Source: an uncultured Bacteroidales bacterium (GTDB lineage Bacteria > Bacillota_I > Bacilli_A > RFN20 > CAG-826). Taken from it: a DNA stretch of 64,000 nucleotides. Both the position numbers and the translations under genes were made by a program. Below, piece by piece: positions 10,666 to 47,026 of the stretch (its first letter is position 1; the number at the start of each line of letters is the position of its first letter). Location of the stretch: positions 21,439 through 85,438 of the forward strand of contig CAVJMG010000006.1 in NCBI GenBank assembly GCA_963650805.1, in the 5' to 3' direction. The notes below the pieces were generated by a model that was given only the letters and a program-made list of their open reading frames with translations, did no database searches and was not told where the DNA came from.

Positions 10666-14736
<4,071 letters not shown>

Positions 14737-25281: not shown

Positions 25282-25601
25282 ATGGCGATTCGCATTTAAA
25301 ATCGGTTTGACAAACCGTTTTAATTTCGCTGCCTACTACTGGCTGAGGAAAGAATCGTTTGGCTAAATTAAGGGTTGAATTTTATTTTCAATCTCTTTCC
25401 TATGTCGTTTCAAGAAGAAAATTCTTAAAAGCGGTTTCTTAAATTTTCAGGCTTTCCCTTATTCGTTCACCCTTTACAATAGGATTCCGGTTATGAAGCA
25501 ATTCCAAAAGGGGAATGGTGGTATCCGTCATGGGGCCTCTATCCCCTTTTTCGCCATTGCTTAACCACCGTGTTCGGGGAAACCCAGAAAGGAAAAATTT
25601 C

Positions 25602-26741: not shown

Positions 26742-26759
26742 ACTGATTTCTTGATTTTC

Positions 26760-26798
26760 AATCCACGTCTCCCTTCTTTTAAGGAGGGGACGTGGATT
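26760..26798 (+). promoter_or_regulatory. Strong intercistronic hairpin after the binding-protein gene
   Basis: A 13-bp stem AATCCACGTC(T)CCC / GGGGACGTGGATT with a 12-nt loop. No U-tract follows, so it more likely acts in mRNA stabilisation or processing than as a full terminator. Confidence 0.5.
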
Positions 26799-26835
26799 CT
26801 CCTTATCCGTTTAAGAAAAAAACGAGGATGCCCAC

Positions 26836-27633: not shown

Positions 27634-27636
27634 GAT

Positions 27637-29507: not shown

Positions 29508-29508
29508 C

Positions 29509-29991
29509 ATGCATACGCTTATTCTTATGGCGGGAATCCCCGGATCGGGAAAATCCACTTGGTGCAAGCTCTACCAAAAGGAGCACCCCAACGTCTTTAT
29601 CGTGGATACGGACGAGACACGTAAGAAAATAACGGGATCATACCTCGTTTTTCCAGAGAACATGGAAATCATCTTCGATGCGATGATTGAGGAGACCAAC
29701 ACCCTTTTCAAACAGCATGAAAATGAAGAATGCACAGTGATCGAAGATTCGATTTTCCTTGATGATTATCGGCGAAAATACTACATGGAACGCATTAAAG
29801 GTTTTGACCGAGCGATTTTATTCATGGTCAAAATGCACGATTACTCCATTTGTTACAAGCAGAACAAAATGCGTCAAAAAGACAAATGGGTACCCGATGA
29901 TGTCATCGACCATATGCGAGAAATCTACGTGGATCCATCCCCTGAAGTGCGCGCTTATTTCGACGAGGTGAAAGTTGAGTGGTGGAATTAA
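29509..29991 (+). CDS. P-loop kinase-like ATP-binding protein (AAA_33 / polynucleotide-kinase-like)
   Basis: MHTLILMAGIPGSGKSTW is a Walker A motif and VDTDETR is Walker B-like. The gene starts 2 nt after the phnE2 stop, so it is probably co-transcribed. Confidence 0.65.
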   Translation: MHTLILMAGIPGSGKSTWCKLYQKEHPNVFIVDTDETRKKITGSYLVFPENMEIIFDAMIEETNTLFKQHENEECTVIEDSIFLDDYRRKYYMERIKGFDRAILFMVKMHDYSICYKQNKMRQKDKWVPDDVIDHMREIYVDPSPEVRAYFDEVKVEWWN

Positions 29992-30068: not shown

Positions 30069-30106
30069 CGCCTTTTCGGTGTCCTTTAGGACAAAAGGCG
30101 AATTTT
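30069..30106 (+). terminator. Putative terminator of the phn-kinase operon
   Basis: CGCCTTTT ... AAAAGGCG stem with an inner GTCC-TTTA-GGAC stem, followed by AATTTT. Confidence 0.45.
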
Positions 30107-30120
30107 AGCGATATGGCGGT

Positions 30121-30149
30121 TTGCAATGAGCCCCCTTTGGCGTTATATT
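30121..30149 (+). promoter_or_regulatory. Putative promoter of the nine-gene transporter/nuclease operon
   Basis: TTGCAA (30121-30126), a 17-nt spacer, then TATATT (30144-30149). Confidence 0.5.
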
Positions 30150-30212
30150 ACAAGCAGTTATGAGCCTGCCCACTTTTTTGGAACGGACAATGCGACAGGA
30201 GGACTATCTTTT

Positions 30213-32231
30213 ATGAGGAAACGCTCATTGGCATTTTTCGCAATCTTAGCCCTTTTTGGCATTGGTTCCGCCGCTATTAGCCAGTCGAATGCTCTCGGGG
30301 TTTCCGCCGCCGAAGATCCCTCTCCCCGCTTTGAGGGAGAAACCGAAGTCGACCGTTCGGAACTCGCCTTCACTTTGACCGGTTCTTCCCTTACGGACAC
30401 CGCCCAAAGCTTCTCGCTGACAATGCAATCGGTCAAAATCGAGGCTTGGAACAACGGGAACCGCTATAACGACGTCTTCTCCGTCATCGACGATGAGAAT
30501 TTCACCGATGTTTCTTCTGCGAAAGAGGCTGCTACGACCGCCTATGAAAAGGCTCAGGCCGACGGAACCGAGTACACGCCCGTGACTTTCAATGGATCCG
30601 TCTTCAACATTTCCTACAAGAAGAACGCGACGATTGTTTTGCCCCAATGTATCAGCTACGGCTCCGATCCCACTTATTTCCGAATCGGATTGACAAGCAT
30701 CAACACCGAGGCTTGCTTCGATTACAAGAACAACGCGGTGAGCTACGCCGGGATTTCGACGATCATCATTCCCGAAGGCTATGAAACCATCCACGCGGAT
30801 GCCTTCACCGGCGCAAAAGAAGCAGGGGTTACCATCAAAGTCGCCGCTTCCGAAGATTTGGCCGGTTGGGAGGAAGGCTGGACCGACGCCGATGTTCAAT
30901 ATGGCTATGAGCTTTCCGCTTCTGAAAAGAGGCAGCTTGAGGTCAATACCACCGGCTCCACCTCCTTCGGCGATTCCAAAGATTTCTTTGTCGGCTATTT
31001 CGATTCCGAGGACTCCTCCAAGAATAAGCCTTTGACCATGGAATACTCCCTCATCAACGCGGATGGGACGAAGTCTTCCGAAAAGCATTATTATGAAGTT
31101 CCTTTAAACGCCACTCAGGTGAATTACGACGCCGTTGGTTCTATCGCCGGCAAAGGCAAAGATGACCGCAGCCTCGACATTGAGGTTCCTTCCGGCAGCC
31201 AAATCGATGAGTCCAACATTGTCTTCCATAATATTTACAGGCTCGTGAAAAACGATGAAGGGGGCGTCGTTCCCGATTGGGAGTCCGGGGCTTTTAAAGC
31301 CACGCCGACGCGCTCCTACAACAAAGTTTCCCATATTGAGGACTTCATGTCGGTTCAGGCGAGCTTCGCTTCCCATATTGGCCAATATTCTCGCTTCTCA
31401 ATCGCCATCAATCCGAAATACGACATTTTCAAAACACTGAATCCGACTTCTTACGAATCGAATAAAACGAGCATCGAAAACGGCACTCTCCGCATTCGTA
31501 TCCTCTTCTCTTCCTTAGCAAGCGCCAAATACCGCTTAGTCTACAAAAGCGATAGCGGTGAGAACGTGACGGTGACCGTCCCGGTGACCACCCCGATTAG
31601 CGTGTCCGAAATCCAAGGCGGCAAGTCGGTTTCCTTCGTTTTGAAAAATTCCGACGTCGCGCCGGATTTCTCAAGCGATGACGTCATCTCTTTCCAGCTT
31701 TGTGGCTTCTACCTCCAAACCGATTTGTTCAACCCCGTCAAAAATACCATTACGAGCAATTCGAAAAAATCTGTGCGTTTCGCCGCCCTCGAGCTTCTTC
31801 CCGACGGTATTTCCACGGTAAGGGACGTCAGCGTAGGCGCTTTCCTCGGCATCAGCTATGGCGTCTATGCGATCCTCTTCATCGCCGGAGCCGTTGGGTA
31901 TTGGGTCTATTGCAAGAAAAAGTACAGGAATGATGAATTCCGCAGGGTCAACGACAAGAAATTCTTCCTTGCCTCCCTCCGCAACTTCTTCGGTTATGGC
32001 CTTATTCTCTCTTCTATCTTGTTCATCATCGCGCGCTGGGGGCTGTTCAACGACACGGTCGTTGTCTATAACCCCTTGGACGTGTGGGTCATCGTGTTCA
32101 CAATCGCCGGGGCTATCTTCCTCGGGTTTGCGATAAAAGAATTCGTCGTCTCCACGAAAAAGACGTTGGAGAGGAAGAAAAAAGAAAAGCTGCACCTCGA
32201 TGCTGACGTCGTCGACGACGGAACCAAATAA
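30213..32231 (+). CDS. Surface ectoprotein with an N-terminal signal peptide and three C-terminal transmembrane helices
   Basis: AGGAGGA RBS precedes ATG 30213. MRKRSLAFFAILALFGIGSAAISQSNA is a signal peptide, and an ectodomain of about 560 aa follows. The C-terminal helices are VGAFLGISYGVYAILFIAGAVGYWVY, FFGYGLILSSILFIIARWGLF and VWVIVFTIAGAIFLGFAI, followed by a basic tail. Confidence 0.7.
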   Translation: MRKRSLAFFAILALFGIGSAAISQSNALGVSAAEDPSPRFEGETEVDRSELAFTLTGSSLTDTAQSFSLTMQSVKIEAWNNGNRYNDVFSVIDDENFTDVSSAKEAATTAYEKAQADGTEYTPVTFNGSVFNISYKKNATIVLPQCISYGSDPTYFRIGLTSINTEACFDYKNNAVSYAGISTIIIPEGYETIHADAFTGAKEAGVTIKVAASEDLAGWEEGWTDADVQYGYELSASEKRQLEVNTTGSTSFGDSKDFFVGYFDSEDSSKNKPLTMEYSLINADGTKSSEKHYYEVPLNATQVNYDAVGSIAGKGKDDRSLDIEVPSGSQIDESNIVFHNIYRLVKNDEGGVVPDWESGAFKATPTRSYNKVSHIEDFMSVQASFASHIGQYSRFSIAINPKYDIFKTLNPTSYESNKTSIENGTLRIRILFSSLASAKYRLVYKSDSGENVTVTVPVTTPISVSEIQGGKSVSFVLKNSDVAPDFSSDDVISFQLCGFYLQTDLFNPVKNTITSNSKKSVRFAALELLPDGISTVRDVSVGAFLGISYGVYAILFIAGAVGYWVYCKKKYRNDEFRRVNDKKFFLASLRNFFGYGLILSSILFIIARWGLFNDTVVVYNPLDVWVIVFTIAGAIFLGFAIKEFVVSTKKTLERKKKEKLHLDADVVDDGTK

Positions 32232-32246
32232 AGAAGGAGAACGAAC

Positions 32247-34154
32247 ATGGAAATCCGCATCAAAGATTTGACCAAAATATTCCCTGGAGACGCGAAAAAG
32301 GGAATCCGCGACACAATCGCCGTGAAGGATATGTCCTTCGTCGTTCCCGATGGGAAACTTGTTGGTTTGCTTGGCCCTAGCGGTTGCGGCAAATCCACGA
32401 CCCTTTACATGATTTCCGGACTCCAAGTCCCTTCTTCTGGCGAAGTTTGGTTTGGCGATCAAGAAGTCACCAACCTCTCCCCTGAAAAGCGCGGCATTGG
32501 GCTTGTCTTCCAAAACTACGCCCTCTACCCGCACATGACGATTTACAAGAACATCGAATTCCCTTTGACCAATCTCAAAGTCGAAGTCCCCTTGGAAACC
32601 TTCTATGACTACAAGCTTTCTTATTCTTATGAAAAGAAGGCTGACGACATCGTTGCGGGAATCGTGAAATCCGCCCAAAGCCTTTGCCAAAAGCTCGGCT
32701 TGGGGAAAAAGAGCTACCTCGTTGAGGCCAAAGACGGCAATCCATTGGTCATCGACGTTACGTTGAAGTCCGTTTCTCCGAGCGTCGAATCTGCTTTCAA
32801 GAAGCATTTCACATCCATTATCCCTGCCACTTTGTCTAACGAAGAAAGTAAGCAGGTGTCTTCCCCTTTATACGATTCCACTGTTCGCGCAAGCGTTTTG
32901 AAGCCCTCTTCCCACGAGACTCTCAGCGTCTCAATCAAGGGGAAGCTCGGCAAAGGCTTCTCCACCTCCCATATCGATGATTGCATCTCCTCTTTCAAGG
33001 GCGCGGGGAAAGAATTCGGCAAAGTCATCAACGCCGCAATCGCCAAAACCAGCGAAGGCTATGAGCTCATGGCCAACATCAACGGCGTTAAGCGCGATAC
33101 CCTTGATGCCTTGGTTGCGAGAATCACTGCTTCCTTCGCTTATCCGGGTGGCGTCTCCTATTCTATTTCCGCGGTTAAGGACGCCGCTTTCCAAAAGGAA
33201 TTGAAGGCCGCTTTGAAGGCTAAGAAGGTCTCTTACAGCGATTTCAAACTCTATTTCGACAAAACGAACACCAAAGTCTTCTTCAAGCTTAAGAAAGTCA
33301 GCAAAGAAGACGCGAAAACCATTCTCGATGAGCTTTCTGAAAAACTTGGCCTTGGTGAATTGGAAGTCGTCACCGTCCAAGCCATTACTCATCGCTCTTT
33401 AACAAAAGAAGAAAGGCGCGACATCGTTTACGACGCCGCCAAACTCGTCCAAGTCGACGAATATCTGCAACGTAAACCCAATCAGCTCTCCGGCGGCCAG
33501 CAGCAGAGGGTCGCCATCGCCAGGGCCTTAGTCAAAAAGCCGAGGGTCTTGCTCCTTGATGAGCCGTTGTCCAACCTCGACGCCCGTTTGCGTTTGCAGA
33601 CCCGCGAGGAAATCCGCCGCATCCAGCAAGAAACCGGCATTACCACCGTCTTCGTCACCCACGACCAAGAAGAGGCTATGTCGATTTGCGACCAAATCGT
33701 GGTCATGAAACTCGGTGTCATGCAACAAATGGATGCCCCCCAAACCGTCTATAACGATCCCGCCAATCTCTTCGTCGCCCAATTCTTGGGCAACCCCCCG
33801 ATTAATGTCTTCGAAGGCAGAATCGAGGAAGACAAGGTTTATATCTGCGAAGAAAAAGTCATGGATCTTCCCTCCAAAACGGAGTCGAAGAGCGTTTATA
33901 TCGCCGTCAGGCCCGAGGGCTTCGCCATCGCTTCTGAAGACGAAAGCAACGCCCTTTCCGCCTCGATTGAGCAAATTCAGGTCCTCGGCCGCGACATTTC
34001 TCTTGTCGCCCATAATCCCGCCTGCACCAAGCCGACTTTCAAAGTCATCATCTCCAGCGAACAAATGCAGCAGGGCAAAGATGTTAAATTGACCTTAAAA
34101 GCCAATAAGACTTATCTCTTCGACCACGAAACGGAAGAAAGGATCCGCTTCTAA
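32247..34154 (+). CDS. MalK/UgpC/MsmK-like ABC ATPase with an insertion of about 270 aa in the helical subdomain
   Basis: Walker A GPSGCGKST and Q-loop FQNYALYPHMT lie at aa 43-98. The signature LSGGQQQRVAIARAL and Walker B LLLDEPLSNLDA appear only at aa 414 onward. A C-terminal MalK-like regulatory/OB domain is present. 635 aa in total. Confidence 0.9.
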   Translation: MEIRIKDLTKIFPGDAKKGIRDTIAVKDMSFVVPDGKLVGLLGPSGCGKSTTLYMISGLQVPSSGEVWFGDQEVTNLSPEKRGIGLVFQNYALYPHMTIYKNIEFPLTNLKVEVPLETFYDYKLSYSYEKKADDIVAGIVKSAQSLCQKLGLGKKSYLVEAKDGNPLVIDVTLKSVSPSVESAFKKHFTSIIPATLSNEESKQVSSPLYDSTVRASVLKPSSHETLSVSIKGKLGKGFSTSHIDDCISSFKGAGKEFGKVINAAIAKTSEGYELMANINGVKRDTLDALVARITASFAYPGGVSYSISAVKDAAFQKELKAALKAKKVSYSDFKLYFDKTNTKVFFKLKKVSKEDAKTILDELSEKLGLGELEVVTVQAITHRSLTKEERRDIVYDAAKLVQVDEYLQRKPNQLSGGQQQRVAIARALVKKPRVLLLDEPLSNLDARLRLQTREEIRRIQQETGITTVFVTHDQEEAMSICDQIVVMKLGVMQQMDAPQTVYNDPANLFVAQFLGNPPINVFEGRIEEDKVYICEEKVMDLPSKTESKSVYIAVRPEGFAIASEDESNALSASIEQIQVLGRDISLVAHNPACTKPTFKVIISSEQMQQGKDVKLTLKANKTYLFDHETEERIRF

Positions 34155-34164
34155 GGAGGGCTTT

Positions 34165-35250
34165 ATGCTATTTAAGAAGAAAGCAAAAGCTCCTGAACAA
34201 CCCGTGAACTTGGCCGCCCAAGAGCTTTTCGCCGAAGAAAGGCCAAATTATAGCGAAGGGTATGACGCAGAAAGCGGAACTGTCGTCCGCTTGGTTTCGC
34301 GCCATCCTTCCAAAAAGGCGTACCAAACCCGCGGCATTGAAGACATCGGAGCTTCCAACAACTGGAAGGGCTGGCTCTACCTCGCCCCGGTCATCGTCTT
34401 GGTCGCCATCTTCCTCATCTATCCGCTCATCAACACCATCTTCATCGCCTTCACGGGCAATTATGAATACGCGACCGGTAAATTCGATTATCTGACGTTC
34501 GAGAATTTCGCTTACATCTTCGGCCTTACGACGAATGCGGCGGGCGGCACGGAATACAACTTCGTCCGTTACGCTTTGCCAAATACCTTCTTGCTCGTCA
34601 TAATCACCGTTCCCGTATCCATATTCTTGGCCTTGATTATCTCGGTGGCTTTGAATTCGATTCCTTGGTTTAAGAAATTCCTTCAAACCCTCTTCTTCCT
34701 TCCCTACGTCACCAACGCCATCGCCGTCGGTATGGTCTTCTCGGTCATCTTCGACGACAAAGGCGTCATCAACTACATTTTCAATACGACAACGACGTGG
34801 ATTTACGGGGCGAACCCGCAAATCGCGATGATCCCTCTTTGCCTTTATATCGTCTGGGGCAGCATCCCGTATAAGATTTTGATTTTCCTTTCGGGCTTGC
34901 AGGGCATCGATAAGCAGTATTACCAAGCCGCCATGATCGACAGCACCCCGCACTGGAAGGTGCTTTGGCGCATCACCGTCCCCCTTCTTTCGCCTCAAAT
35001 CCTTTACATCATGATTACTTCCTTCATCGGATCGTTTAAGGAATACACGCATATCGTCGGCTTGTTCAACGGCCCCGGAACTTTGGGTACAAGCGGCGAT
35101 CCCAACATGGAAACCATCGTTTATTACATCTACGAGAATCTTTCCACGCACACCTCTTACGCCGCCGCGGCCGCCGTGTTCTTGTTCGTCATCATCCTCG
35201 TCTTCACCGCTTTGCAATTCTGGGCGTCGAAGAAGAGGGTCCATTATTGA
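34165..35250 (+). CDS. Carbohydrate/glycerophosphate-type ABC permease (MalF/UgpA-like)
   Basis: Multi-pass membrane protein with the EAA-like loop LSGLQGIDKQYYQAAMIDSTPHWKVLWRITVPLL. AAGGAGGG RBS is present. Confidence 0.85.
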   Translation: MLFKKKAKAPEQPVNLAAQELFAEERPNYSEGYDAESGTVVRLVSRHPSKKAYQTRGIEDIGASNNWKGWLYLAPVIVLVAIFLIYPLINTIFIAFTGNYEYATGKFDYLTFENFAYIFGLTTNAAGGTEYNFVRYALPNTFLLVIITVPVSIFLALIISVALNSIPWFKKFLQTLFFLPYVTNAIAVGMVFSVIFDDKGVINYIFNTTTTWIYGANPQIAMIPLCLYIVWGSIPYKILIFLSGLQGIDKQYYQAAMIDSTPHWKVLWRITVPLLSPQILYIMITSFIGSFKEYTHIVGLFNGPGTLGTSGDPNMETIVYYIYENLSTHTSYAAAAAVFLFVIILVFTALQFWASKKRVHY

Positions 35251-35262
35251 GGAGGGTAAGTC

Positions 35263-36234
35263 GTGAAAGAGCAAATCAAAACATACCCGGATTTCAAAAA
35301 AGTCCGCGTCAATGACAACCTCACCCTTTCTCTAGGAGAGTCAGGGAAAACGGTCGATGCGATAAAAAGAACCGAGAAGGTATCGAAAATCATAATGACC
35401 ACGCTGACCTACATCTTCATTTTGGTCTTGGCCGTCATCGTGGTTTTCCCCTTCTATTGGATGATCATCACCTCGCTTAAGCAAAACGAGGAAATCCGCG
35501 CGGCCACCCAAACCTTCTTCCCCTCCATCGTCATGTGGAGCAACTACGTCCACGTCTTCCAAGTCTTCGATTTCGGAACCTACATGTGGAACACGATCGT
35601 CGTCGCCTTCTTCTCCACTTTGGGGACCTTGCTAACGACCATCCTCGCCGCCTTTGCCTTCGCTAGACTCAAATTCAAAGGGCGCGACGCCGTGTTCGCC
35701 ATCTTCCTCATGACCATGATGATTCCGGGCGAAATGATGGTCATCTCCAACTACATCACCGTCGCTAGCTTTGGCTGGGTTGGGCAAACCCAAACTCTAT
35801 ACGAAGCCTATCTCGCCATGATCGTCCCGTTCATCATCTCCGTCTTCTACATCTACTTGCTCCGCCAGAATTTCAAGCAGATCCCCAACGAACTTTATTT
35901 AGCCGCCAAAGTCGATGGCAAAAGCGACTGGTCCTTCCTTTGGAAAGTCATGGTTCCTTTGGCCGCACCGACGCTTATTTCCATCACCATTCTCAAATTC
36001 ATGGGCACGTGGAACTCCTATGTGTGGCCTAACCTCGTTACCCAGTCTCGCGATTATCGCTTGATTTCCAACGGTCTTCGTTCCTCGACCTTCGTCGACG
36101 TCGATCTTGGCTTGACCGATTACGGCTACCAGATGGCCGCGACGGTTCTAGTTACCGTGCCTTTGTTCCTGCTCTTCATCTTCTTCCGCAAATACATCAT
36201 GAAAGGTGTTGGGCGTGCCGGCATTAAAGGATAG
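35263..36234 (+). CDS. Carbohydrate/glycerophosphate-type ABC permease (MalG/UgpE-like)
   Basis: GTG start after GGAGGG. EAA loop is LRQNFKQIPNELYLAAKVDGKSDWSFLWKVMVPLAAP. Confidence 0.85.
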   Translation: MKEQIKTYPDFKKVRVNDNLTLSLGESGKTVDAIKRTEKVSKIIMTTLTYIFILVLAVIVVFPFYWMIITSLKQNEEIRAATQTFFPSIVMWSNYVHVFQVFDFGTYMWNTIVVAFFSTLGTLLTTILAAFAFARLKFKGRDAVFAIFLMTMMIPGEMMVISNYITVASFGWVGQTQTLYEAYLAMIVPFIISVFYIYLLRQNFKQIPNELYLAAKVDGKSDWSFLWKVMVPLAAPTLISITILKFMGTWNSYVWPNLVTQSRDYRLISNGLRSSTFVDVDLGLTDYGYQMAATVLVTVPLFLLFIFFRKYIMKGVGRAGIKG

Positions 36235-36292
36235 AATAACCAAGGGTTTAAGATTCTTAAGAATCTTGGATACAAAACGAAAGGAAAAACTT

Positions 36293-37852
36293 ATGAAAAA
36301 ATCGATCTATGTGTATTCGATGGCTGCGTTGCTCGCTTTGGCGGGCTGCTCTCAAGGCGGAGGAACGCCGGCTTCTAGCTCTTCTCAAGCTCCCGCTTCC
36401 AGCGCTCAAGAATCTTCTAGCTCCGGGGATTCGACCGGCATTATCAAAGAGAAGACCGAAATCACTTTGACCGCGACCCTCTCTTACACCGATCAGATTG
36501 AATCCTTTATCGAAAGCTTCAAGAAAGTCGAACCGAACGTCACTGTTACCTATTCGAAGGAATCCACCGGCTACGACGGGCTCAAAGACAAAATCGTTGA
36601 AGGCATCGCCGTCAATAACTACGCCGATATGGCCGTTTTGTATCCTGACGCGATCGGCACGCTCATCAATTACAACGTCGTCACCCAGCTCGACGACTAT
36701 ATGAACAACACCGAATACGGCTTCACCGCCGACGACATCGATGACATCGCCCCGGCCTACATCGAAGAAGGAAAGAAGTATTCCGTCGAAGGAACCTATT
36801 CGCTCCCTTTCTGCAAATCCACCGAGGCCATGTTCTACAACAAAGGGATTCTCGTTGGCTTGGACCTCTCCGCTTATGATGCCACCATCAATGAAGGCAA
36901 AGCCCTCAGCGAGACTTATCTCAACAACCTCACTTGGGACGAACTCTTCGACAAGCTTTGCCCCGCTTTGGTCGCCTATAACGAAGTCGCTGATTCCGAC
37001 CACAAAATCCTCCAAGATAACGCCACCTATTCCAAAGCCGTCCTTGGATACGATTCCGACGACAACCTCTTCATCACCCTTGCCGAGCAATATGGCTATG
37101 GCTATACCAGCGTCGACGCCGTCACCGGAGAAGGGAAGCTTCTCTTCAACGTCGATGACATCGATTCCGACGGCGATGGGAAAAACGACACCAACGGCAT
37201 GAAAGAGCTTCTCAAGAAGTTCAAGAAGGCCTACGACAAGGGCTATATCATCACCAAAGGCTCCAGCAACGGCGGCAACTACACCAATTATTCCTTCACC
37301 GCCGGATCCGCCCTCTTCTCCATCGGCTCCACCGGGGGCGCCAAATACCAACAGAGCGATACCCTCGATACCGGAGTTGCCAACATTCCCCAGGCCCCCA
37401 AGGGGGACGGACATAAATCCGCCGTCATCTCCCAAGGACCCTCCATTTGCTTGCTCAACCACAAAGACGCCAACAAGAGCCTTGCCTCTTGGCTCTTCTA
37501 CAAGCACATGGTCACCACCAAGAATTCCTTGAAATGGTCTCTTGACACCGACTATGCTCCGATTCGCTACAGCGCCATGGAAAGCAATGAATATCTCGAT
37601 GCCTCTTCCGAAACTGATACCGAGCTCTATAGCCTTGACCGTCTTAAAGCCAGGGTTCGCACCTACGTTGCTTCTAGCGACGTCAGCAGCTCCCTGTATA
37701 CCTCGCCCGTTTTCAAAGGCAGCGATGCCGCGAGGACCCAGGTCGGCTCTCTTGTGACCACGCTGTTCAAGACCGACGCCGAAAAGTTCACCGACGAATT
37801 GGTCAACGCCGAATTCGCCAAAGCCGAAAACACCGTCAAAACCAAGATGTAA
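36293..37852 (+). CDS. ABC substrate-binding lipoprotein 1 (family 1 extracellular solute-binding-like)
   Basis: MKKSIYVYSMAALLALAGC has a lipobox, followed by a Ser-rich linker. It resembles the next gene in its SBP-like blocks (YSLPF.KSTE.MFYNK, ISQGPS). Confidence 0.75.
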   Translation: MKKSIYVYSMAALLALAGCSQGGGTPASSSSQAPASSAQESSSSGDSTGIIKEKTEITLTATLSYTDQIESFIESFKKVEPNVTVTYSKESTGYDGLKDKIVEGIAVNNYADMAVLYPDAIGTLINYNVVTQLDDYMNNTEYGFTADDIDDIAPAYIEEGKKYSVEGTYSLPFCKSTEAMFYNKGILVGLDLSAYDATINEGKALSETYLNNLTWDELFDKLCPALVAYNEVADSDHKILQDNATYSKAVLGYDSDDNLFITLAEQYGYGYTSVDAVTGEGKLLFNVDDIDSDGDGKNDTNGMKELLKKFKKAYDKGYIITKGSSNGGNYTNYSFTAGSALFSIGSTGGAKYQQSDTLDTGVANIPQAPKGDGHKSAVISQGPSICLLNHKDANKSLASWLFYKHMVTTKNSLKWSLDTDYAPIRYSAMESNEYLDASSETDTELYSLDRLKARVRTYVASSDVSSSLYTSPVFKGSDAARTQVGSLVTTLFKTDAEKFTDELVNAEFAKAENTVKTKM

Positions 37853-37882
37853 TTTAGCCGCCAACGCTAGAAGGAGACCGAT

Positions 37883-39340
37883 ATGAAACCATTCACCAAA
37901 TTAATTCTCGCCGCTCCCCCGGCCATATTAGCGCTTTGCGCATGCGCTTCCGGAGGCGGCGAGGCTTCTTCTAGCGGGGTGACCGTTGAATTCTGGACCA
38001 CTTTTGGCCAGAAGGTTATGGACGGCATCGAGACCAAAGCTGCCGAATTCTCCAAAATCATCAAAGAGAAGGAAGGCGTTGACGTCACGATCAATGCCAG
38101 CTATCAAGGCGGGTACACCGACACCCTCGCCAAAATCGAAAAGGGCTTGGCCATCGGCAACACGCCGACCATGGCCATTGCTTATCCTGACCACGTCGCC
38201 AATTATCTGAGCGTCTCCGACGGTTCGCTTGTTTACAACCTCGATAATTACATCAACGATCCCGAAATCGGATTCGGCAAACAAAGCTATCTTGGAGACA
38301 CCAAGGGAAGTGCTGTCTATGGCGAAGACGATTTCGTGGACTCCTTCCTCGATGAAGGAAAGCACTACGCCAAAAAAGGAACCTATTCGCTTCCTTTGAT
38401 GAAGTCTTCCGAAGTCATGTTCTACAACAAAGAAGCGGTCGCCAACGCTTTCCGCCTCTATAGGCCCGACATCCTTTCTGATGATGCAAGAGATGAATTC
38501 CTCGCCAAGATGAGTTGGAGTGAGCTCATCGATTTGTGCAAAGTGGCCTATCAAAACAAAGACAAAGTCCTCACCACGATGGAAGAGCCTCTTTTCTATG
38601 ATAGCGATTCCAATTTCATCATTTCCAAGATGTACCAGGAGAATATCGCCTATTCGAGCATCAATTCTTCGGGCGTTGGATCGATTGACTTCGAAAGCGG
38701 TGAAAACAGAACCAAGACCGAAGCCCTTCTCAACGAATTCAAAGCGTTGAGGGATGAAGGCATCCTCACCACCAAAGGCATTGAAGATACTTACGGCTCC
38801 GATTCGTTCAAAGCCGGGAAATGCCTCTTTGAGGTCGGTTCTAGCGGCGGAACGGGTTATGCAATGCCCGATGGCTCTGCGTTTGAGGTCGGCATCGTGA
38901 AGGTGCCCGCTTCCAATAACAATCCCCTTTATGTTTCCCAGGGCCCAACCCTAACTTTCCTAAAGTCCACGACGTTGTCTTCTGAAGAAAACGACCTCAG
39001 GATGCGCTATGCTTGGCAGTTTGCGAAGTTCCTCACCAACCCCGACGCTAATGACTATCTTTGCGTCTATGGGTCGGAAGGCTATTTGCCCGTGCGCTAT
39101 AGCGCTTATGAGACCAGCGCCTACCTCCAATTCCTCGACGAAGGGGAAATCTACGCCAACTCCGCCAAAGTCTTGATCGATGACATCGATGGGCATTATC
39201 TCAACACAGACGTTTTCGTTGGATCGGCTGAGCTTCGCACGCAAATCGGCTCCGCTCTAACCCAAACCCTTTTGGGCACTAAGACCGCGACCCAAGCTCT
39301 TGACGACGCCATTAAGACCGCCAAAACCGCATTAAAGTGA
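37883..39340 (+). CDS. ABC substrate-binding lipoprotein 2, a paralog of SBP 1
   Basis: MKPFTKLILAAPPAILALCAC is lipobox-like. Shared blocks with SBP 1 include YSLPLMKSSEVMFYNK and VSQGPT. Confidence 0.75.
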   Translation: MKPFTKLILAAPPAILALCACASGGGEASSSGVTVEFWTTFGQKVMDGIETKAAEFSKIIKEKEGVDVTINASYQGGYTDTLAKIEKGLAIGNTPTMAIAYPDHVANYLSVSDGSLVYNLDNYINDPEIGFGKQSYLGDTKGSAVYGEDDFVDSFLDEGKHYAKKGTYSLPLMKSSEVMFYNKEAVANAFRLYRPDILSDDARDEFLAKMSWSELIDLCKVAYQNKDKVLTTMEEPLFYDSDSNFIISKMYQENIAYSSINSSGVGSIDFESGENRTKTEALLNEFKALRDEGILTTKGIEDTYGSDSFKAGKCLFEVGSSGGTGYAMPDGSAFEVGIVKVPASNNNPLYVSQGPTLTFLKSTTLSSEENDLRMRYAWQFAKFLTNPDANDYLCVYGSEGYLPVRYSAYETSAYLQFLDEGEIYANSAKVLIDDIDGHYLNTDVFVGSAELRTQIGSALTQTLLGTKTATQALDDAIKTAKTALK

Positions 39341-39350
39341 GGATCAGAAC

Positions 39351-40871
39351 ATGAAAAAGAAATCTTTATTGCTCATATTAACCGGAGCCGCCGTGTTGGC
39401 GCTTGGTTCCTGCGCTTCGAATAACGGAGGAGATTCTTCGGGCCCAACCCCTGCTTCGTCCTCGAATAGCGGCGCTTCTAGCGCAGCCGAATTCATTGAC
39501 TACGCTGGTAACGGAAGCGTCACCCTCTCTCTTGATTACGAGGGCAAGAATTTCTGGACCGACGGCATTGAGCAGGTGACTTTGTACAACACCGTCGATG
39601 GCGATACCGCCCACTTCACGACAAAAGAGAAAAACTCCAAGGGCGATACGCTTCTTAAGTCTCGTTTCTACGGCATCGATACCCCAGAGTCCACCGGCAA
39701 AGTCCAGCCTTGGGGCAAACCGGCCTCCAAATACACCTCCGGCATTTTGGAGAACGCCAACAAAAACGGAACGATCGTCGTTTCTTCTCCGCAAAAGGTC
39801 TACGGCGCCCCTTCTCCAGACTCCACCGGTTCGCGCTACGTTTCGCTGATTTGGATTAACGAAACGGTCAAAAACGCCCCCAAAGAGCAACTCAAGCTTT
39901 TGAACCTCATGATCGTCCAAGATGGCTATTCTTGGGTCAAAAACGTTTCCGATTTCCCGGAATACACCGATACGTTCTACGCCGCCGAAAGCCAAGCCAA
40001 GAACCTTGGGCTGCACCTTTTCGGAACGGAGAAAGACCCTTATTACAACTATGGGGACTATCAAAACGTTTCGCTGCTCGATCTGAAGAACGAAATGGTC
40101 GCCACCCTCAAAGATTCTTCCCACGAAAACGCCTACGACAACGCCAAAGTCACCGTTCAGGGAACTGTGGCTGGCTATTCCAACCATATCCTCTATATCC
40201 AGGATTATTGCTCTTACGTCGATGATTCCGGGGAGCCGCTTTACTATAACGACAAAGGTGAATCCATCTACGAGGACAAAATCAAGGCGGGTATCCTCGG
40301 CGAATACGCGGGCATCAACATTTTCGTCGGCATGTCCGCCATTCCTTCCAAATACACCACAATCAACACTTATATTCAGGTCTCCGCGTTAGCCCTTGAA
40401 TCTCAATATGGCTTCCAATTGACCGACGCGACCTTCCCCACCCTTTCCTATGACGAGAATGACGCCCAAGTCCTCATCAAAGCCAAAGACAATACCGATG
40501 AGCATGCTTTGCATACTTTCGAATACACCTCAACGCAATTGAACCAGCTCATTGCTGATCAGAATTTCGAATCCTTGAATTGCTCCGTCAAGCTCACCGA
40601 TGCGGTCGAAGTCACCGGCGGCTACGATTCCGATGGAAGCGTCGTGCTTTATACGGGCGACGATTCTTCTTCCTTCTCCGTCTATCTTGGCTTCTCTTAT
40701 CAGCCCGATCCCGATGACAGCGTTCTGAAATGGACGTCTTACGAGAAATTCGTGGGCAATTCCTTCTTCTTCTCTGGCGTGTTTGGCTTGCATACGAGCT
40801 CTACCGGCACCCGCCACTTCAACATCTATCCTTCAAAATCGAGCGACGTGGTGTACCAGAAAGAGGCCTGA
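39351..40871 (+). CDS. Staphylococcal-nuclease (SNase/thermonuclease)-family lipoprotein with a C-terminal OB-like extension
   Basis: MKKKSLLLILTGAAVLALGSC has a lipobox. The SNase catalytic blocks are VDGDTAHF...KSRFYGIDTPES...GKPASKYT. The downstream VTVQGTVAGYSNHILYIQD resembles an OB-fold strand pattern. Confidence 0.85.
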   Translation: MKKKSLLLILTGAAVLALGSCASNNGGDSSGPTPASSSNSGASSAAEFIDYAGNGSVTLSLDYEGKNFWTDGIEQVTLYNTVDGDTAHFTTKEKNSKGDTLLKSRFYGIDTPESTGKVQPWGKPASKYTSGILENANKNGTIVVSSPQKVYGAPSPDSTGSRYVSLIWINETVKNAPKEQLKLLNLMIVQDGYSWVKNVSDFPEYTDTFYAAESQAKNLGLHLFGTEKDPYYNYGDYQNVSLLDLKNEMVATLKDSSHENAYDNAKVTVQGTVAGYSNHILYIQDYCSYVDDSGEPLYYNDKGESIYEDKIKAGILGEYAGINIFVGMSAIPSKYTTINTYIQVSALALESQYGFQLTDATFPTLSYDENDAQVLIKAKDNTDEHALHTFEYTSTQLNQLIADQNFESLNCSVKLTDAVEVTGGYDSDGSVVLYTGDDSSSFSVYLGFSYQPDPDDSVLKWTSYEKFVGNSFFFSGVFGLHTSSTGTRHFNIYPSKSSDVVYQKEA

Positions 40872-40874
40872 TCA

Positions 40875-41348
40875 ATGTATTGCTCCCATTGCGCGAAGAA
40901 AATAAACGAAAGCAAGATCGAAGCCAAAAAGCCTTCTTTCGACCCGAACGTCGAAATCAAAGAAGGCACGGGCGTCTCTTACGTTTGCCCCCGCTGCGGG
41001 CATCTCATTCATTCCGAGCTCGACGAAAAGGAAGTCAAATCCCTTTCTCAAGCTGCCCACGCCCAAATTCAAAGGGCTAGGAACAATTTCGCCTCTGGCA
41101 TGGGCATGGTTTCCATTGGGGCCATTGCCTTAGTTCTGTCCATCCTCTTCTTCTTCCTTGCGAAGAAGCCGACGAACCAGTATCAGCTCGTCGTTGATTG
41201 CGCGGAGTTCTACGTCTTCGTGGTGCTCCTTGTTGCTTCGGTTATTCTCCTTGGCGTAGGAGGGAGTTTTGTCGGTATTGGCATCGTCAAAAAGCAACGC
41301 AACTCCCGTCTGCTCAAGGATATTAACAACCGGACCTTCGTTCAGTAA
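40875..41348 (+). CDS. Zinc-ribbon membrane protein
   Basis: CSHC...CPRC forms an N-terminal zinc ribbon, followed by two hydrophobic helices. 157 aa. It starts 3 nt after the nuclease stop. Confidence 0.6.
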   Translation: MYCSHCAKKINESKIEAKKPSFDPNVEIKEGTGVSYVCPRCGHLIHSELDEKEVKSLSQAAHAQIQRARNNFASGMGMVSIGAIALVLSILFFFLAKKPTNQYQLVVDCAEFYVFVVLLVASVILLGVGGSFVGIGIVKKQRNSRLLKDINNRTFVQ

Positions 41349-41393
41349 GTCCGGATACATCGTCGCTTAGCTATTTGGGAATTAGGAGGAATT

Positions 41394-43862
41394 ATGAAAA
41401 AATCGTTTATCCCATTAACCGCTTTGGCGTTGTTGGCCCTCGTTTCTTGCGGCGGCAACAGCAACCAGACAAGCTCCACCGTTTCGGAGAGTGAGGTCTC
41501 TTCGCAGCAGGAAGTTGTCAATTCCGTCACCATCACCAACAAAGAGGAAATCTCCGCGGACTGGGCTCTTGGTTCTAGCGATCGCACTTTGAACATTTCC
41601 ACCGATCCCGCCGGCAACGTCAACGCGCTCATCAACGCCGGCAAGATCACCATCACTTCTTCTGATCCCACCATCGTGGCCGTCGTTGGCCGCGTTCTCC
41701 AGGCTAAAGCCGCCGGCACGGCGACTGTCACCGTCGCTTATGGAGGCAAGACCGATTCCGTTTCCGTCACCGTCATCGGCGAAAAGACCGCCATCGACCT
41801 TTATGGAACTGTCCACGCCGGCACCCTTGCCGATCCTTTAGACAACGCCGATGCCCTCAAAGTCGCCGAAAAAACCGGTGAGACTGAGACTGAGAAATAT
41901 TTCTATGTCTCCGGCACCGTCGATAGCTTCAGGGAGGTCCCTTCAACCCAAGGCAACGTTTCCTATTATTTGACCAAAGGCGCAAGCGATGCCAAGTCCT
42001 TCCTGGTTTATCGCGCGACTTTGGATAAGGATATCTATGGCACTACGAAAGTCACCGAAAACGATATTTGGGTCGGCGCTGAAGTTGTTGCCAAGGTTAA
42101 AATCGTTAATTACAAGAGCAATACCCCTGAGACCAGCAGCGGCGGAACCATCGTTTCCGTTAAAGGCACTAAGCCTGAAATCAAAACCATTGATGCGACC
42201 GTCGAGCAGGCTTTGATTGCGGCTAAGGCCCTCGGTGACAACAAAACCAGCACCGACAAATACGCCATCACCGGCTATATCGTCGCCGTTGAGGCTTCTG
42301 GTTTCTATTTAAGCGACACCAAAGGCGCCATCAGCGCCACCCGCGAGAACTTCTACGTTTATAACTATTCTGGCGATAATGCCGCTAAGTGCACCTTGAA
42401 CGCGAAAATCAAAGTCACCGCTTACCTCCAGCATTACGTCTCTTCCACCGATTCCGCCAAATACAATTACCAAACCACGAGCATTTCCGCCCTTGAAATC
42501 CTCGAGGAAGGGGACGCTCCAGTCGCTGCTGAGGAAATCGATGTCGCTAAGGCTCTCGAAATTGGCAAAGCTCTTGCCGACAATGCGGATAGCACCGCGA
42601 AATACGCCATCACCGGTTATGTTGTTAAGGTCACATATTCTTATAGCGACACCAGCAAGAATATGAGCTTCACTTTGGGCGCTTCCGCGGATGCCACTGA
42701 AACCGTCACGGTGTTTAAGACTTCCCTTGCCGATGGGACCGCATCCACTTCTATTGTTGACGGGGCGAAAGTCAAGGTCACTGGCTATATCGAAAAATAC
42801 GTAAAAGGTGATACCGCAACTATCGAAGTTGTCAGCGGAAGCACGGAAATTCTTGAAGAGAAAAAGGAAGAAACCAAGACCGTCACCGTTGCCGAGGCCG
42901 TTACCGCCGCAAAGGCTTTGGCATCTGGCGTCACTTCCTCCGACAATTACGTTATAACGGGCTATGTCACTAAAATTTCTGGCAAATATGACTCTCAATA
43001 TGGGAATATGAGCGTCTATCTTTCTGACGAAATCGATGACCCCGAAGCCGTCTTTATTGCTTTTCAGGTAAAATGCGACGAGACGGTTGCCGCTAAAATC
43101 TTGGTTGGTGCAAAAGTCAAAGTCACCGGGAAAATCATGAACTACAATGGCACTCCCGAAACCGTTAGCAAAGGCGCTGCGACAATCGAGCTTGTAACTG
43201 AAGCTTCCGGGACCGCCGTTAAAGCCTCCATCGCATCCGAAACTTTGAAAGTTGGTGAAACCTCTCAGATTACTGCCACCGCCGGAGAAGGTGATACTTT
43301 CACTTATTCTAGCAACGATACTAGCGTCGCTACCGTTAACGAGACTGGCTTAGTCACTGGCGTGGCCGTGGGCAAAACCAAAATTGTTATTACCTCTAAT
43401 GCCGGTAGAAAAGCTGCCGTTGAGGTTTCCGTCCTTGCTGATAACGCCGCTGAGGTAAATGGTTTCTCCGCGATTTCCGGCTCTATTGGCGATACCGGAT
43501 ACACCTACGTTTCCGATGTAGGCGCCGCCCAAACTAAACCGGCCGTTAACTCTGAGGCGATTCGTTTATACCAGGGCGGAGCCACCTTTACGCTTTCTGG
43601 CGATGAAACCGCTAAAGCTCTTGTTTCTTTGAAACTCACGTCCGATGGCGCTTCTGCTGGCGAAGGTCCGTTCAAATATGTGTACGGAGCTTCGGCTGAT
43701 TCTGTTGGCAACGAGACCACTGTTACCTCTTGGGGCGCCGACCATTCCGTGACGCTCAATTTTGAGGGGACGGGCATTAAATATTTCAAATTAACGACGA
43801 CCGGCACTTCGAAAACAACCAGAGTTTATCTAAAAGGGCTCACACTTACTTTCGCTGAGTAA
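41394..43862 (+). CDS. Surface lipoprotein with a Big_2 domain, four tandem OB-like repeats, a second Big_2 domain and an unknown C-terminal domain
   Basis: MKKSFIPLTALALLALVSC has a lipobox. Big_2-like segments are ITSSDPTIVAV..G.V.A.AAGTATVTV and YSSNDTSVATVNETGLVTGVAVGKTKIVITS. Between them lie four repeats of about 105 aa of the form A(L/V)..A.....(K/N)Y.ITGY(V/I)......(V/I)K(V/I)....... Confidence 0.8.
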   Translation: MKKSFIPLTALALLALVSCGGNSNQTSSTVSESEVSSQQEVVNSVTITNKEEISADWALGSSDRTLNISTDPAGNVNALINAGKITITSSDPTIVAVVGRVLQAKAAGTATVTVAYGGKTDSVSVTVIGEKTAIDLYGTVHAGTLADPLDNADALKVAEKTGETETEKYFYVSGTVDSFREVPSTQGNVSYYLTKGASDAKSFLVYRATLDKDIYGTTKVTENDIWVGAEVVAKVKIVNYKSNTPETSSGGTIVSVKGTKPEIKTIDATVEQALIAAKALGDNKTSTDKYAITGYIVAVEASGFYLSDTKGAISATRENFYVYNYSGDNAAKCTLNAKIKVTAYLQHYVSSTDSAKYNYQTTSISALEILEEGDAPVAAEEIDVAKALEIGKALADNADSTAKYAITGYVVKVTYSYSDTSKNMSFTLGASADATETVTVFKTSLADGTASTSIVDGAKVKVTGYIEKYVKGDTATIEVVSGSTEILEEKKEETKTVTVAEAVTAAKALASGVTSSDNYVITGYVTKISGKYDSQYGNMSVYLSDEIDDPEAVFIAFQVKCDETVAAKILVGAKVKVTGKIMNYNGTPETVSKGAATIELVTEASGTAVKASIASETLKVGETSQITATAGEGDTFTYSSNDTSVATVNETGLVTGVAVGKTKIVITSNAGRKAAVEVSVLADNAAEVNGFSAISGSIGDTGYTYVSDVGAAQTKPAVNSEAIRLYQGGATFTLSGDETAKALVSLKLTSDGASAGEGPFKYVYGASADSVGNETTVTSWGADHSVTLNFEGTGIKYFKLTTTGTSKTTRVYLKGLTLTFAE
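41814..43196 (+). repeat. Four tandem protein-coding repeats (about 105 aa each) inside the lipoprotein gene
   Basis: Repeat starts lie near aa 141, 265, 381 and 497. Each has an alpha-helical AKAL-type lead, a K/N-Y-x-I-T-G-Y-V strand and a V-K-V-T-G/A...Y strand. The DNA copies are diverged. Confidence 0.7.
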
Positions 43863-43880
43863 AGTTAAATCTCTTCTCTT

Positions 43881-43911
43881 AAGGCCCCGGAATACCGGGG
43901 CCTTCTTTTTA
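43881..43911 (+). terminator. Strong intrinsic terminator ending the nine-gene operon
   Basis: AAGGCCCCGG-AATA-CCGGGGCCTT followed by CTTTTT. Confidence 0.9.
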
Positions 43912-43943: not shown

Positions 43944-45044
43944 ATGGAAGAGACTTCGAAAAAAGAGGAAATCCAAATTTACCCCTTATCCAAAGGGAAG
44001 CGTTTCGTGGCTTTTCTCGCGGACTTCTTTTTGACGTTCATTATTTCGTTCGCCTTTTTTCATTTGGCCATCTATCCCCTTCTTTCTTATTCTTTGAACC
44101 TCTACGGCGAACAAGAAACATGCTTACAAGCTCAAAAGGATAGAGACGGGGTTTTATATGGGAATTCCCTTTTAGTTTACGAAGAAGGGAAAAGCGACAA
44201 AGAACCTTCTTCTTTTACCACCAATCTTGAATATACCTGCAAATCCTATGTTTCTTCTTTGATTAATGGTGATTCTACTTATGATGTTTTTCATCATTAC
44301 TTCGTTGATATCAGGAAGCAAGAAAGCCAATACGTGGAATGGCTGAAGGTTAAAGATACAGCGACGCAGTTCTTTTCCTATTCCCCTTCGGTGTCTTTGC
44401 TTTCCAAATACGTTGATGAATTCTCCCCTCTATTTGAAGAGGGCAATGCTCCTTCGAAGCAAGGCGAAGAAGACTATTCCCGTTTCCAAAAAGAATTCTT
44501 CCTGCCTGCTTATTCCTCTTTGCTTCAAGACGTGATCAAAAACGATTTGAGTTATCAGGGAGCTTCCTATAATCAGAAGCAAGCTGTGGTGACTGCTTTT
44601 TCTAACAAAGCCAATGCGATAATCGTTTCCTCCGCGGCGGTTGCGTATGTGGTGGGTGTCTCCGTCGTTTATCTCTTCACTCCTTTGCTTTCGAAAACCA
44701 GGAAGACCTTGGGGATGATATTCCTACGAAGAGAAAGGGTGCACGCGGCAAAATTGATGCCCCTAAGGAAGAGAGATCTGATTTTGCCTTACCTATACGC
44801 TTATTTTGCTAACGCAGGTCTATTATTTCTTCTCCCGTGGCCAATCGTCTCTTTTAATGAGCTGTTCTCCCTTCCGGGCCTATGGATTCTGTCTTTAATC
44901 TCGATCCTATTCGACTTAGCATCTCTTTTCTTTCTCCTCTTTGATAAATTGGACAGGACGCTTTCAGACAAAATGACGATCTCTGTTATGCTGGAAGAAG
45001 AGGAGATGGATGCGATATATAGGGCGAAAGGGTATGGAAAATAA
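43944..45044 (+). CDS. RDD-family membrane protein
   Basis: The N-terminal KRFVAFLADFFLTFIISFAFF is RDD-like (R..A.l.D). A large extracytoplasmic segment follows, then C-terminal helices. Confidence 0.6.
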   Translation: MEETSKKEEIQIYPLSKGKRFVAFLADFFLTFIISFAFFHLAIYPLLSYSLNLYGEQETCLQAQKDRDGVLYGNSLLVYEEGKSDKEPSSFTTNLEYTCKSYVSSLINGDSTYDVFHHYFVDIRKQESQYVEWLKVKDTATQFFSYSPSVSLLSKYVDEFSPLFEEGNAPSKQGEEDYSRFQKEFFLPAYSSLLQDVIKNDLSYQGASYNQKQAVVTAFSNKANAIIVSSAAVAYVVGVSVVYLFTPLLSKTRKTLGMIFLRRERVHAAKLMPLRKRDLILPYLYAYFANAGLLFLLPWPIVSFNELFSLPGLWILSLISILFDLASLFFLLFDKLDRTLSDKMTISVMLEEEEMDAIYRAKGYGK

Positions 45045-46750: not shown

Positions 46751-47026
46751 AGCTTAGAGTCAATTCCGCTTGTGTTTTGTTGCGTTTTAAATAATGGCTT
46801 CGCGGTTTTTAGAATCGCTTTTTAATGTTTTGCAAGCAATTAACCAAAGATAAATTGTCTAATAAGGCTTCCGCAATGCAAAATTGCGCCTCTTTTAATT
46901 TTTACGACAATATCTAAATTTATTGACCATTTGATTAAATTAAAATTGACGTTTTGAGCATACTGTTTGAAATTGCAACCTTTTCATGTATTATGGCTTT
47001 CAGTTTGCAAAAAAGGAGATACATTT

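Follow-up and report, generated by a model that had tools for sequence, protein, structure and literature searches.

Surface nucleases of the staphylococcal nuclease (SNase) family have been noted beside ATP-binding cassette (ABC) transporters in mycoplasmas since the 2000s, and the transported molecule has never been shown. In Mycoplasma agalactiae, MAG_5040, an active SNase lipoprotein, is encoded between P80, a lipoprotein that resembles a binding protein, and an ABC ATPase with two permeases. It is co-transcribed with P80 and the transporter in an arrangement conserved in the M. hominis group, and the authors proposed that the nuclease feeds nucleotide precursors to the transporter (PMC3585158). 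Linkage of an SNase to an ABC transporter has also been reviewed for Mhp379, Mpn133, MHO_0730 and MbovNase (PMC9740415). Here, we describe nine genes (g1 to g9) on the forward strand of a 64,000-nt stretch of DNA from an uncultured bacterium (GenBank assembly GCA_963650805.1, contig CAVJMG010000006.1, positions 21,439 to 85,438), to which we refer as the window. An initial annotation of this DNA had read the genes as an expanded version of the mycoplasma module, for capture, cleavage and uptake of nucleic acid, and the precedent on which it drew is correct in substance. We propose, with a probability of roughly 0.6, that the cluster is an extracellular nucleic acid scavenging system of a genome-reduced lineage of gut Bacilli, with predicted activities and ligands and probable co-transcription.

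The cluster and the Mycoplasma operons (MAG_5030-5070, mhp379, MPN133-136 and MHO_0730) have in common a surface SNase lipoprotein, a binding-protein-like lipoprotein, a CUT1 ATPase and two permeases, all on one strand. Both are found in genome-reduced hosts that are Bacilli or their relatives, both have the same proposed role, namely digestion of external nucleic acid and import of the precursors, and most g6 orthologues match, below its cut-off, the model of the Mycoplasma P68 lipoproteins. In contrast, gene order differs, being binding protein, nuclease, ATPase and permeases in mycoplasmas, and g1, ATPase, permeases, two binding proteins, nuclease, g8 and g9 here. Compared by gene content and order, our cluster adds a second, paralogous binding protein, g1, g8 and the protein at the g9 position. 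Furthermore, the nuclease g7 carries two extra conserved C-terminal domains, and the host belongs to a gut and rumen commensal lineage rather than to a group of pathogens.

The transporter is of the same class as UgpBAEC and has the same types of subunit; g5 and g6 fall in the UgpB clade, and motifs around the presumed phosphate-site Tyr and Ser positions align. It differs from UgpBAEC, and from the binders of glycerophosphocholine (GPC) and uridylyl-3'-5'-phosphoguanosine (U3G), in that its scores are far under the equivalog thresholds and g5 and g6 are about 80-100 aa longer. It differs from UgpBAEC also in the ~250 aa insert of its ATPase, g2, and in its partners, a nuclease and a protein with repeats of the oligonucleotide/oligosaccharide-binding (OB) fold. 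An extracellular, cell-attached nuclease (predicted, in the case of g7) combined with PF01336-type OB folds is shared with YhcR of Bacillus subtilis, ExeM of Shewanella oneidensis and SWAN of Streptococcus sanguinis. In ExeM, deletion of the OB region nearly abolishes nuclease activity. Unlike those single proteins, g7 and g9 are separate lipoproteins, and an OB-nuclease fusion occurs only in relatives, at two loci that we call L050 and L076. Further differences are the number of repeats (four to six, with a helix in front), the link to an importer, and attachment through a lipid rather than a sortase or outer-membrane anchor.

Conservation of the cluster in related genomes

A scan of one genome per species returned 203 loci encoding the nuclease, of which 80 were fetched, and collinearity was counted in the 66 of these in which 9 kb or more of sequence precedes the nuclease gene. 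All 66 loci have the full set g1 to g8, in the same order and on a single strand, despite divergence of the proteins down to 22-77% identity. Median identity runs from 29% for g1 to 77% for g4, the most conserved gene of the cluster. This collinearity puts the cluster beyond chance. In every one of the 66 loci g1 opens the cluster, its transmembrane (TM) region being the best conserved part, and g8 follows the nuclease gene in every locus that reaches far enough. The host records are gut, rumen and faecal metagenome-assembled genomes labelled Bacilli, Erysipelotrichaceae and the like, together with Candidatus Enterosoma, Candidatus Onthovivens and Clostridium sp. CAG:288. NCBI treats the two Candidatus taxa as Bacilli incertae sedis; we take them to belong to GTDB order RF39.

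The product of the gene after g8 is always a large surface protein (245-1073 aa), in many cases a lipoprotein, and it is the least conserved member of the cluster. Only its position and an N-terminal Ig-like domain are general (78 matches in the 80 loci), and the remainder of the protein is variable. Across the 80 loci the OB repeat is confined to this gene, except in L050 and L076, where it is fused C-terminally to the SNase protein. These two SNase lipoproteins, of 670 and 723 aa (9986-11998 of L050 and 9944-12115 of L076), extend beyond the usual C-terminal domains by one or two OB repeats of the g9 type, and only there do the OB folds and the nuclease, which are separate genes in the window, form one polypeptide. 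No other observation argues as strongly for joint action of the OB protein and the nuclease. The L076 protein also has a weak match to Ten1 (OB) at 257-337, within its first C-terminal domain. In five loci (L067, at 11449-12588, L069, L070, L074 and L077) an extra lipoprotein of ~380 aa is encoded between g7 and g8; it is present too in L068, where the contig ends before g8. The L067 copy, the only one scanned, has a weak SNase match (E 7e-4).

The nuclease, the OB-repeat protein and the importer

The gene anatomy given in the initial annotation proved right in every item, and all of its domain calls were confirmed (Table 1). The ectoprotein said to be anchored by three C-terminal TM helices (g1) has three long helices in its AlphaFold model, and the insertion-bearing ATPase with two permeases (g2 to g4) shows a split ABC_tran match, TOBE_2 and two BPD_transp_1 domains. 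The two paralogous binding lipoproteins (g5, g6) both match SBP_bac_8 and are 31% identical. For the SNase-family lipoprotein (g7), PF00565 is above threshold and the catalytic set is complete. The zinc-ribbon membrane protein (g8) has four invariant Cys and two hydrophobic helices, and the Big_2 lipoprotein with four OB-like repeats (g9) has a 40-bit Big_2 match, four modelled OB folds and tandem-OB matches in Foldseek.

The fold and catalytic residues of g7 are established, and nuclease activity is predicted from them. DGDT (83-86), R105, D110, T111, P112, E113 and R162 are invariant in 26 relatives. The catalytic residues align one-to-one with D19-T22, R35, D40, T41 and E43 of staphylococcal nuclease; D85 is the counterpart of D21, in the Ca2+ ligand set, and R162 corresponds to R87 by position only. 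PF00565 is matched by 26/26 relatives tested, and more than 700 homologues of g7 were found, all full length. The two C-terminal domains (aa 229-506, ~280 residues) are conserved family-wide and match nothing known: they have no Pfam match, and hhalign found no relation to the OB repeats, to the SNase domain or between the two.

In the AlphaFold model of g9, each repeat starts with a strand and a helix and continues as a barrel of five strands, with the helix typical of OB folds between the third and the fourth (pLDDT about 85-95), and the repeats are mutually homologous (hhalign probability 94-99.8%). Foldseek matched g9 to the tandem-OB single-stranded DNA (ssDNA) binders Teb1, POT1 and CST at probability 1.0. 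The whole-chain search against the PDB was noisy with multi-Ig proteins, and we used only these tandem-OB matches and those to a Big_2-CBM56 arrangement. For g9 itself, PF01336 stays under threshold (20 bits against a cut-off of 27), as it does for the 10/27 repeat units that match it. Among 58 wider relatives of the repeat, 28 match PF01336 (best E 3.1e-16) and 11 match PF13742. Because of the AlphaFold model, the Foldseek matches and these Pfam matches in relatives, we assign the g9 repeats, as modelled, to the OB folds of the nucleic-acid-binding Pfam clan, and consider g9 a putative nucleic acid binder. A profile of the repeat gave nothing significant against PDB sequences, and PrgI (E 0.05) and RPA2 (E 0.88) were rejected as chance matches. 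A likeness in hhalign between R3/R4 and the C-terminal slice of g9 was likewise rejected, as an artefact of extra repeats that longer homologues have in those columns. Foldseek against viral structures returned mostly Big_2-bearing phage tail and capsid proteins and was uninformative, and a self-BLAST of g9 gave nothing useful.

Repeats R2-R4 of g9 (42177-43205) define a family of secreted proteins with many repeats that is large and apparently undescribed. An exhaustive search with the OB repeat yielded 1414 cluster representatives (50% identity) at E<=1e-3, of which 601 remain at E<=1e-10. Some members have 9-12 repeats and exceed 2000 aa, and one has 4288 aa. Partner domains in the 58 sampled are BspA-type LRR, Flg_new_2, Fn3_assoc, CHB_HEX_C_1 and Big.

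What is the likely ligand of the binding lipoproteins? The identity between g5 and g6 extends over 459 aa (E 1e-42). The closest solved relative of both profiles is a Thermus thermophilus protein (7c0x/7c0f; E 4e-20 for g5 and E 1.4e-19 for g6), in a series deposited as "sugar-binding protein", and it is followed by E. coli UgpB and by M. tuberculosis UgpB and UspB. Against the PDB, true sugar binders score at least 10 orders of magnitude worse than UgpB-clade proteins with either profile. The g6 motifs GGY, KS, GSSGG, QG and GYxPV align with 7c0x; Y78 (in GGY), S175 (in KS), GSSGG and Y401 (in GYxPV) are invariant or nearly so, and are matched in the Thermus protein. A phosphate-ester branch of CUT1, characterized in a 2025 study, comprises glycerol-phosphate binders, the GPC binder of M. 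tuberculosis and a U3G binder of T. thermophilus; the phosphate is held by two Tyr and two Ser in the whole branch, and glucose binders are without them (PMC12718374). Judged by sequence, g5 and g6 are members of this UgpB/GPC/U3G branch and not of the sugar branch. Because of this placement and the motif alignment to 7c0x, a phosphate ester or diester is more likely than a sugar to be their ligand, with nucleotides, oligonucleotides and glycerophosphodiesters all as candidates. Binders of glycerol-3-phosphate and glycerol-1-phosphate have a clamp specific to them, Trp-x-x-Trp, on the glycerol moiety. In addition, 25/27 g6 orthologues match the NCBI model for Mycoplasma P68 family surface lipoproteins (best E 8.8e-18, below the 200-bit cut-off), and more of them match this model than match the UgpB model; P68 is mhp390 of M. 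hyopneumoniae.

In g2, the ABC_tran match is split between aa 26-130 and about 380-633, and we therefore recognize an insert of about 250 aa, which lies between the Q-loop and the LSGGQ signature. The best NCBIfam match, UgpC (E 3e-102), is split at profile position about 100, and g2 is 633-658 aa long in all 26 sampled loci. The insert matches no PDB sequence and no Pfam family.

For g1 there is no Pfam or NCBIfam match. Its model has a pLDDT of 79.8, with helices at 541-570, 581-611 and 621-668, and Foldseek against the PDB returned only antibody-, arrestin- and transglutaminase-type beta-sandwiches at low similarity (TM-scores), which gave no functional lead. In g8, C3, C6, C38 and C41 are invariant in 24 orthologues and the C-terminal tail, LLKDINNxTFVQ, is conserved; all Pfam matches are below threshold.

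We propose that the g7 lipoprotein would cut DNA or RNA at the cell surface, that the g9 lipoprotein would hold the polymer near the membrane with its OB repeats, and that g5 and g6 would capture phosphate-containing products, e.g., nucleotides or di- and oligonucleotides. These would be handed to the CUT1-type permeases g3 and g4, powered by the insert-bearing ATPase g2. The universally co-inherited g1 and g8, the latter with a cytoplasmic zinc ribbon, would be accessory membrane subunits and may dock on the permeases.

We favour nucleic acid scavenging because the genes are tightly spaced and end at a single strong terminator, because g1 to g8 stay collinear in 66/66 genomes despite their divergence, and because the SNase catalytic set is invariant. 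The four confidently modelled OB folds argue for it too, since they resemble ssDNA-binding tandem OBs and have relatives that match PF01336 and PF13742, as does the occurrence of the OB repeat, in 80 loci, only after g8 or fused to the SNase. The profiles of g5 and g6 best match a clade that includes a dinucleotide binder; Mycoplasma operons with a co-transcribed SNase, binding lipoprotein and ABC transporter have been given the same interpretation; and ExeM requires its OB folds for activity, with YhcR and SWAN also having such folds.

Gene layout, transcription signals and neighbouring genes

The nine open reading frames (ORFs) span 30213-43862 on the plus strand (in the ORF list, reading frames between 30126 and 43862). 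Their number, common strand and spacing were as first described: the recomputed gaps from g1 to g9 are, in order, 15, 10, 12, 58, 30, 10, 3 and 45 nt. For g1 we take the internal ATG at 30213, which has AGGAGG 8 nt to its 5' side (homologues are 671-686 aa), and for g5 the internal ATG at 36293, which yields the lipobox LAGC (homologues are 474-559 aa).

Table 1. Features of the cluster (nt positions are those of the window)
Feature	Position	Strand	Details
Promoter-like site	30121-30149	+	TTGCAA, 17-nt spacer, TATATT; 9/12 positions; in the 221-nt gap 5' of g1
g1	30213-32231	+	672-aa membrane-anchored surface protein; N-terminal signal/anchor, beta-rich ectodomain, three C-terminal TM helices
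g2	32247-34154	+	ABC ATPase, UgpC/MalK type, with C-terminal TOBE_2; ABC_tran E 2.8e-34 in two stretches
g2 insert	32637-33383		roughly aa 131-379
g3	34165-35250	+	ABC permease, UgpA/MalF-like; BPD_transp_1 E 8e-21; best NCBIfam match UgpA
g4	35263-36234	+	ABC permease, UgpE/MalG-like; BPD_transp_1 E 5e-17; best NCBIfam match UgpE
g5	36293-37852	+	substrate-binding lipoprotein A, lipobox LAGC; CUT1, UgpB clade; SBP_bac_8 E 5e-26
g6	37883-39340	+	substrate-binding lipoprotein B, paralogue of g5; SBP_bac_8 and SBP_bac_1
g7	39351-40871	+	SNase-fold surface lipoprotein, lipobox LGSC; PF00565 36.1 bits (cut-off 21)
g7 nuclease domain	39516-40034		about aa 56-228
g8	40875-41348	+	small basic membrane protein; N-terminal CxxC...CxxC zinc ribbon, two TM helices
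g9	41394-43862	+	822-aa surface lipoprotein, lipobox LVSC; AlphaFold pLDDT 86.9
g9 Ig-like domain	aa 44-128
g9 four strand-helix-OB repeats	41778-43205 (aa 129-604)		aa 129-260, 262-373, 377-490 and 492-604
g9 Big_2 domain	43215-43439 (aa 608-682)		40 bits (Pfam)
g9 C-terminal beta-sandwich	aa 684-822
Intrinsic terminator closing the cluster	43881-43911	+	10-bp stem (43881-43904), 8 G-C pairs, 4-nt loop, T-run

The strong terminator claimed at the end of the cluster is present. Its stem, which is followed by CTTTTTAT, is by far the strongest terminator-like site in 15 kb. The promoter claimed before g1 fared less well: the site exists, but matches of its quality are no commoner than in shuffled sequence (8 promoter-like matches observed, 11.8 +/- 3.6 expected), and only its position, in the gap before g1, backs it as a promoter. 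Judged by spacing and the single terminator, g1 to g9 most likely form one transcription unit. The top promoter-like match of the region is inside g3 (34576-34604; TTGCCA, 17-nt spacer, CATAAT; 10/12 positions) and might provide an internal start for the distal genes. Between the upstream kinase gene and the promoter-like site there is a hairpin at ~30069-30108 (CGCCTTTT ... AAAAGGCG), followed by AATTTT, which may be the terminator of the upstream unit; it matches no Rfam family. Neither a riboswitch nor any other Rfam family was found within the cluster or ahead of it; the sole match in the window is a downstream tRNA-Lys.

Directly upstream (25515-29991), the window encodes a phosphonate-type ABC importer, with a PhnD-like binding protein (25515-26741), an ATPase (26836-27633) and two permeases ending at 29507, and then a small AAA_33 P-loop kinase (29500-29991). 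We considered this kinase as a processor of imported 5'-OH products and set the idea aside because the gene adjoins the cluster only in the closest relatives. Past the terminator are two genes for RDD-family membrane proteins (43944-45044 and 45047-46051). The second adjoins the cluster in 54/80 loci; it precedes g1 in 43 of these and follows g9 in the other 11, and the linkage has therefore been kept through rearrangement. Further downstream, large surface proteins are encoded at 46967-49315 and 50819-53560 (minus strand); one is a lipoprotein-like protein of 782 aa with no Pfam family, and the other a BspA-type LRR_5 protein of 913 aa. Pyruvate:ferredoxin oxidoreductase is encoded at 54577-58182, consistent with an anaerobe. 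Between 4000 and 20000 the G+C content is 0.53-0.60, versus 0.42-0.50 elsewhere in the window; this block has genes for rplA (L1), a methyltransferase and EF-G by Pfam, and ORFs that resemble, by size only, rpoB and rpoC (1268 and 1364 aa) and EF-Tu (405 aa).

Alternative functions and significance

Several observations weigh against nucleic acid scavenging. The OB repeat was detected by our repeat model in the ninth gene of only 39/80 loci, in one to six copies, although several ninth-position proteins in which that model found none have weak Pfam OB matches. All ectodomains of the cluster are acidic, the OB repeats among them (net charge -3 to -6, with homologue medians of -4 to -5, and pI 4.5-5.2), which is unusual for DNA binders; the SNase domain of g7 has a pI of 5.7. 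None of the 58 sampled proteins of the wider OB-repeat family has a nuclease domain, and their partners are of adhesin type. The C-terminal end of g9 resembles, in Foldseek, the glycan-binding arrangement Big_2-CBM56, and the nearest named relatives of the transporter (NCBIfam) move glycerol-3-phosphate. An accessory role in glycerol use has been reported for MPN133 of M. pneumoniae. Lastly, that the 7c0f series is the T. thermophilus dinucleotide (U3G) binder is a presumption. The initial reading of the locus as a module for capture, cleavage and uptake that expands the Mycoplasma one is thus sustained in part, by its anatomy, the precedent, the OB folds, the catalytic residues and the phosphate-ester clade, and is weakened by the acidity and patchy occurrence of the OB repeats.

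Alternatively, the transporter would be a Ugp-like importer of glycerol-3-phosphate or of glycerophosphodiesters derived from lipid head groups, with the SNase lipoprotein and its neighbours being accessory or cleaving another phosphodiester. UgpC, UgpA, UgpE and UgpB are the best named NCBIfam relatives, the E. coli and M. tuberculosis UgpB proteins are among the top solved relatives of g5 and g6, and M. pneumoniae mutants in MPN133, which adjoins a transporter annotated Ugp, grow poorly on glycerol. Nonetheless, we regard this explanation as unlikely. Scores are far under the equivalog cut-offs (28 bits and 16 bits for the binding proteins versus 411 for UgpB; 342 bits for g2 versus 432 for UgpC), the best solved relative is the Thermus protein rather than UgpB, and the explanation gives no role to the OB folds, to their fusion with the SNase or to the intact active site of the nuclease. 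It is quite improbable, in our view, that the nuclease and the OB protein do non-nutritional surface work, such as clearing of extracellular DNA or traps, biofilm remodelling or adhesion, and lie beside a sugar or solute importer through conserved gene order and not through a shared pathway. Such work would fit with the degradation of neutrophil extracellular traps by mycoplasma surface nucleases (PMC9740415), with the joining of the wider OB-repeat family to adhesin-type modules (BspA LRR, Big, Flg_new) and with the carbohydrate-binding look of the end of g9. It sits poorly with order and strand kept in 66/66 genomes, with gaps of 3-58 nt and one terminator, and with the location of the nuclease gene inside the transporter cluster, between the binding proteins and g8. 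Moreover, the linkage recurs independently, with another gene order, in mycoplasmas (PMC3585158).

An ordinary CUT1 locus for oligosaccharide uptake, in which the OB and beta-sandwich domains would bind glycans, seems very unlikely. SBP_bac_1/8 and MalF/MalG/MalK-like parts are typical of sugar importers, maltodextrin and arabino-oligosaccharide binders are among the weaker PDB matches of the g5 profile, and OB folds can bind oligosaccharides. In contrast, Pfam and NCBIfam scans found no glycoside hydrolase in the cluster, its sole encoded enzyme is a nuclease with an intact active site, and the sugar binders fall far behind the UgpB clade in score.

The core idea of an SNase working with an importer is already published for mycoplasmas. 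What is new here is the lineage, abundant uncultured Bacilli of gut and rumen, together with the strict conservation of eight genes, the doubled binding protein, and the conserved g1, g8 and g9-position proteins. The OB-repeat link is also new, as is the finding that the binding proteins belong to the UgpB/GPC/dinucleotide clade. The cluster is a better test case than the mycoplasma operons: its order is fixed across abundant bacteria of gut and rumen (at least 66 species-level genomes), its two binding proteins are soluble, expressible and in a dinucleotide-binder clade, and the OB partner is sometimes fused to the nuclease.

A more specific form of nucleic acid scavenging can be put forward only tentatively, as possible and rather doubtful. 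The cluster might serve specifically to import dinucleotides or short oligonucleotides. The two UgpB-clade binders would take the products of the surface SNase, an OB-repeat receptor would supply the polymer, and g1 and g8 would enlarge the ABC importer as new integral subunits. In that case a widespread uncultured gut lineage (RF39-like Bacilli) would obtain its nucleotides mainly by this route, and the old question of what the homologous Mycoplasma transporters carry would be settled. Should the ligands turn out to be nucleotides or oligonucleotides, CUT1 importers would gain a new substrate class. The way in which these uncultured bacteria with reduced genomes feed would then be explained as well, which could aid in culturing them.

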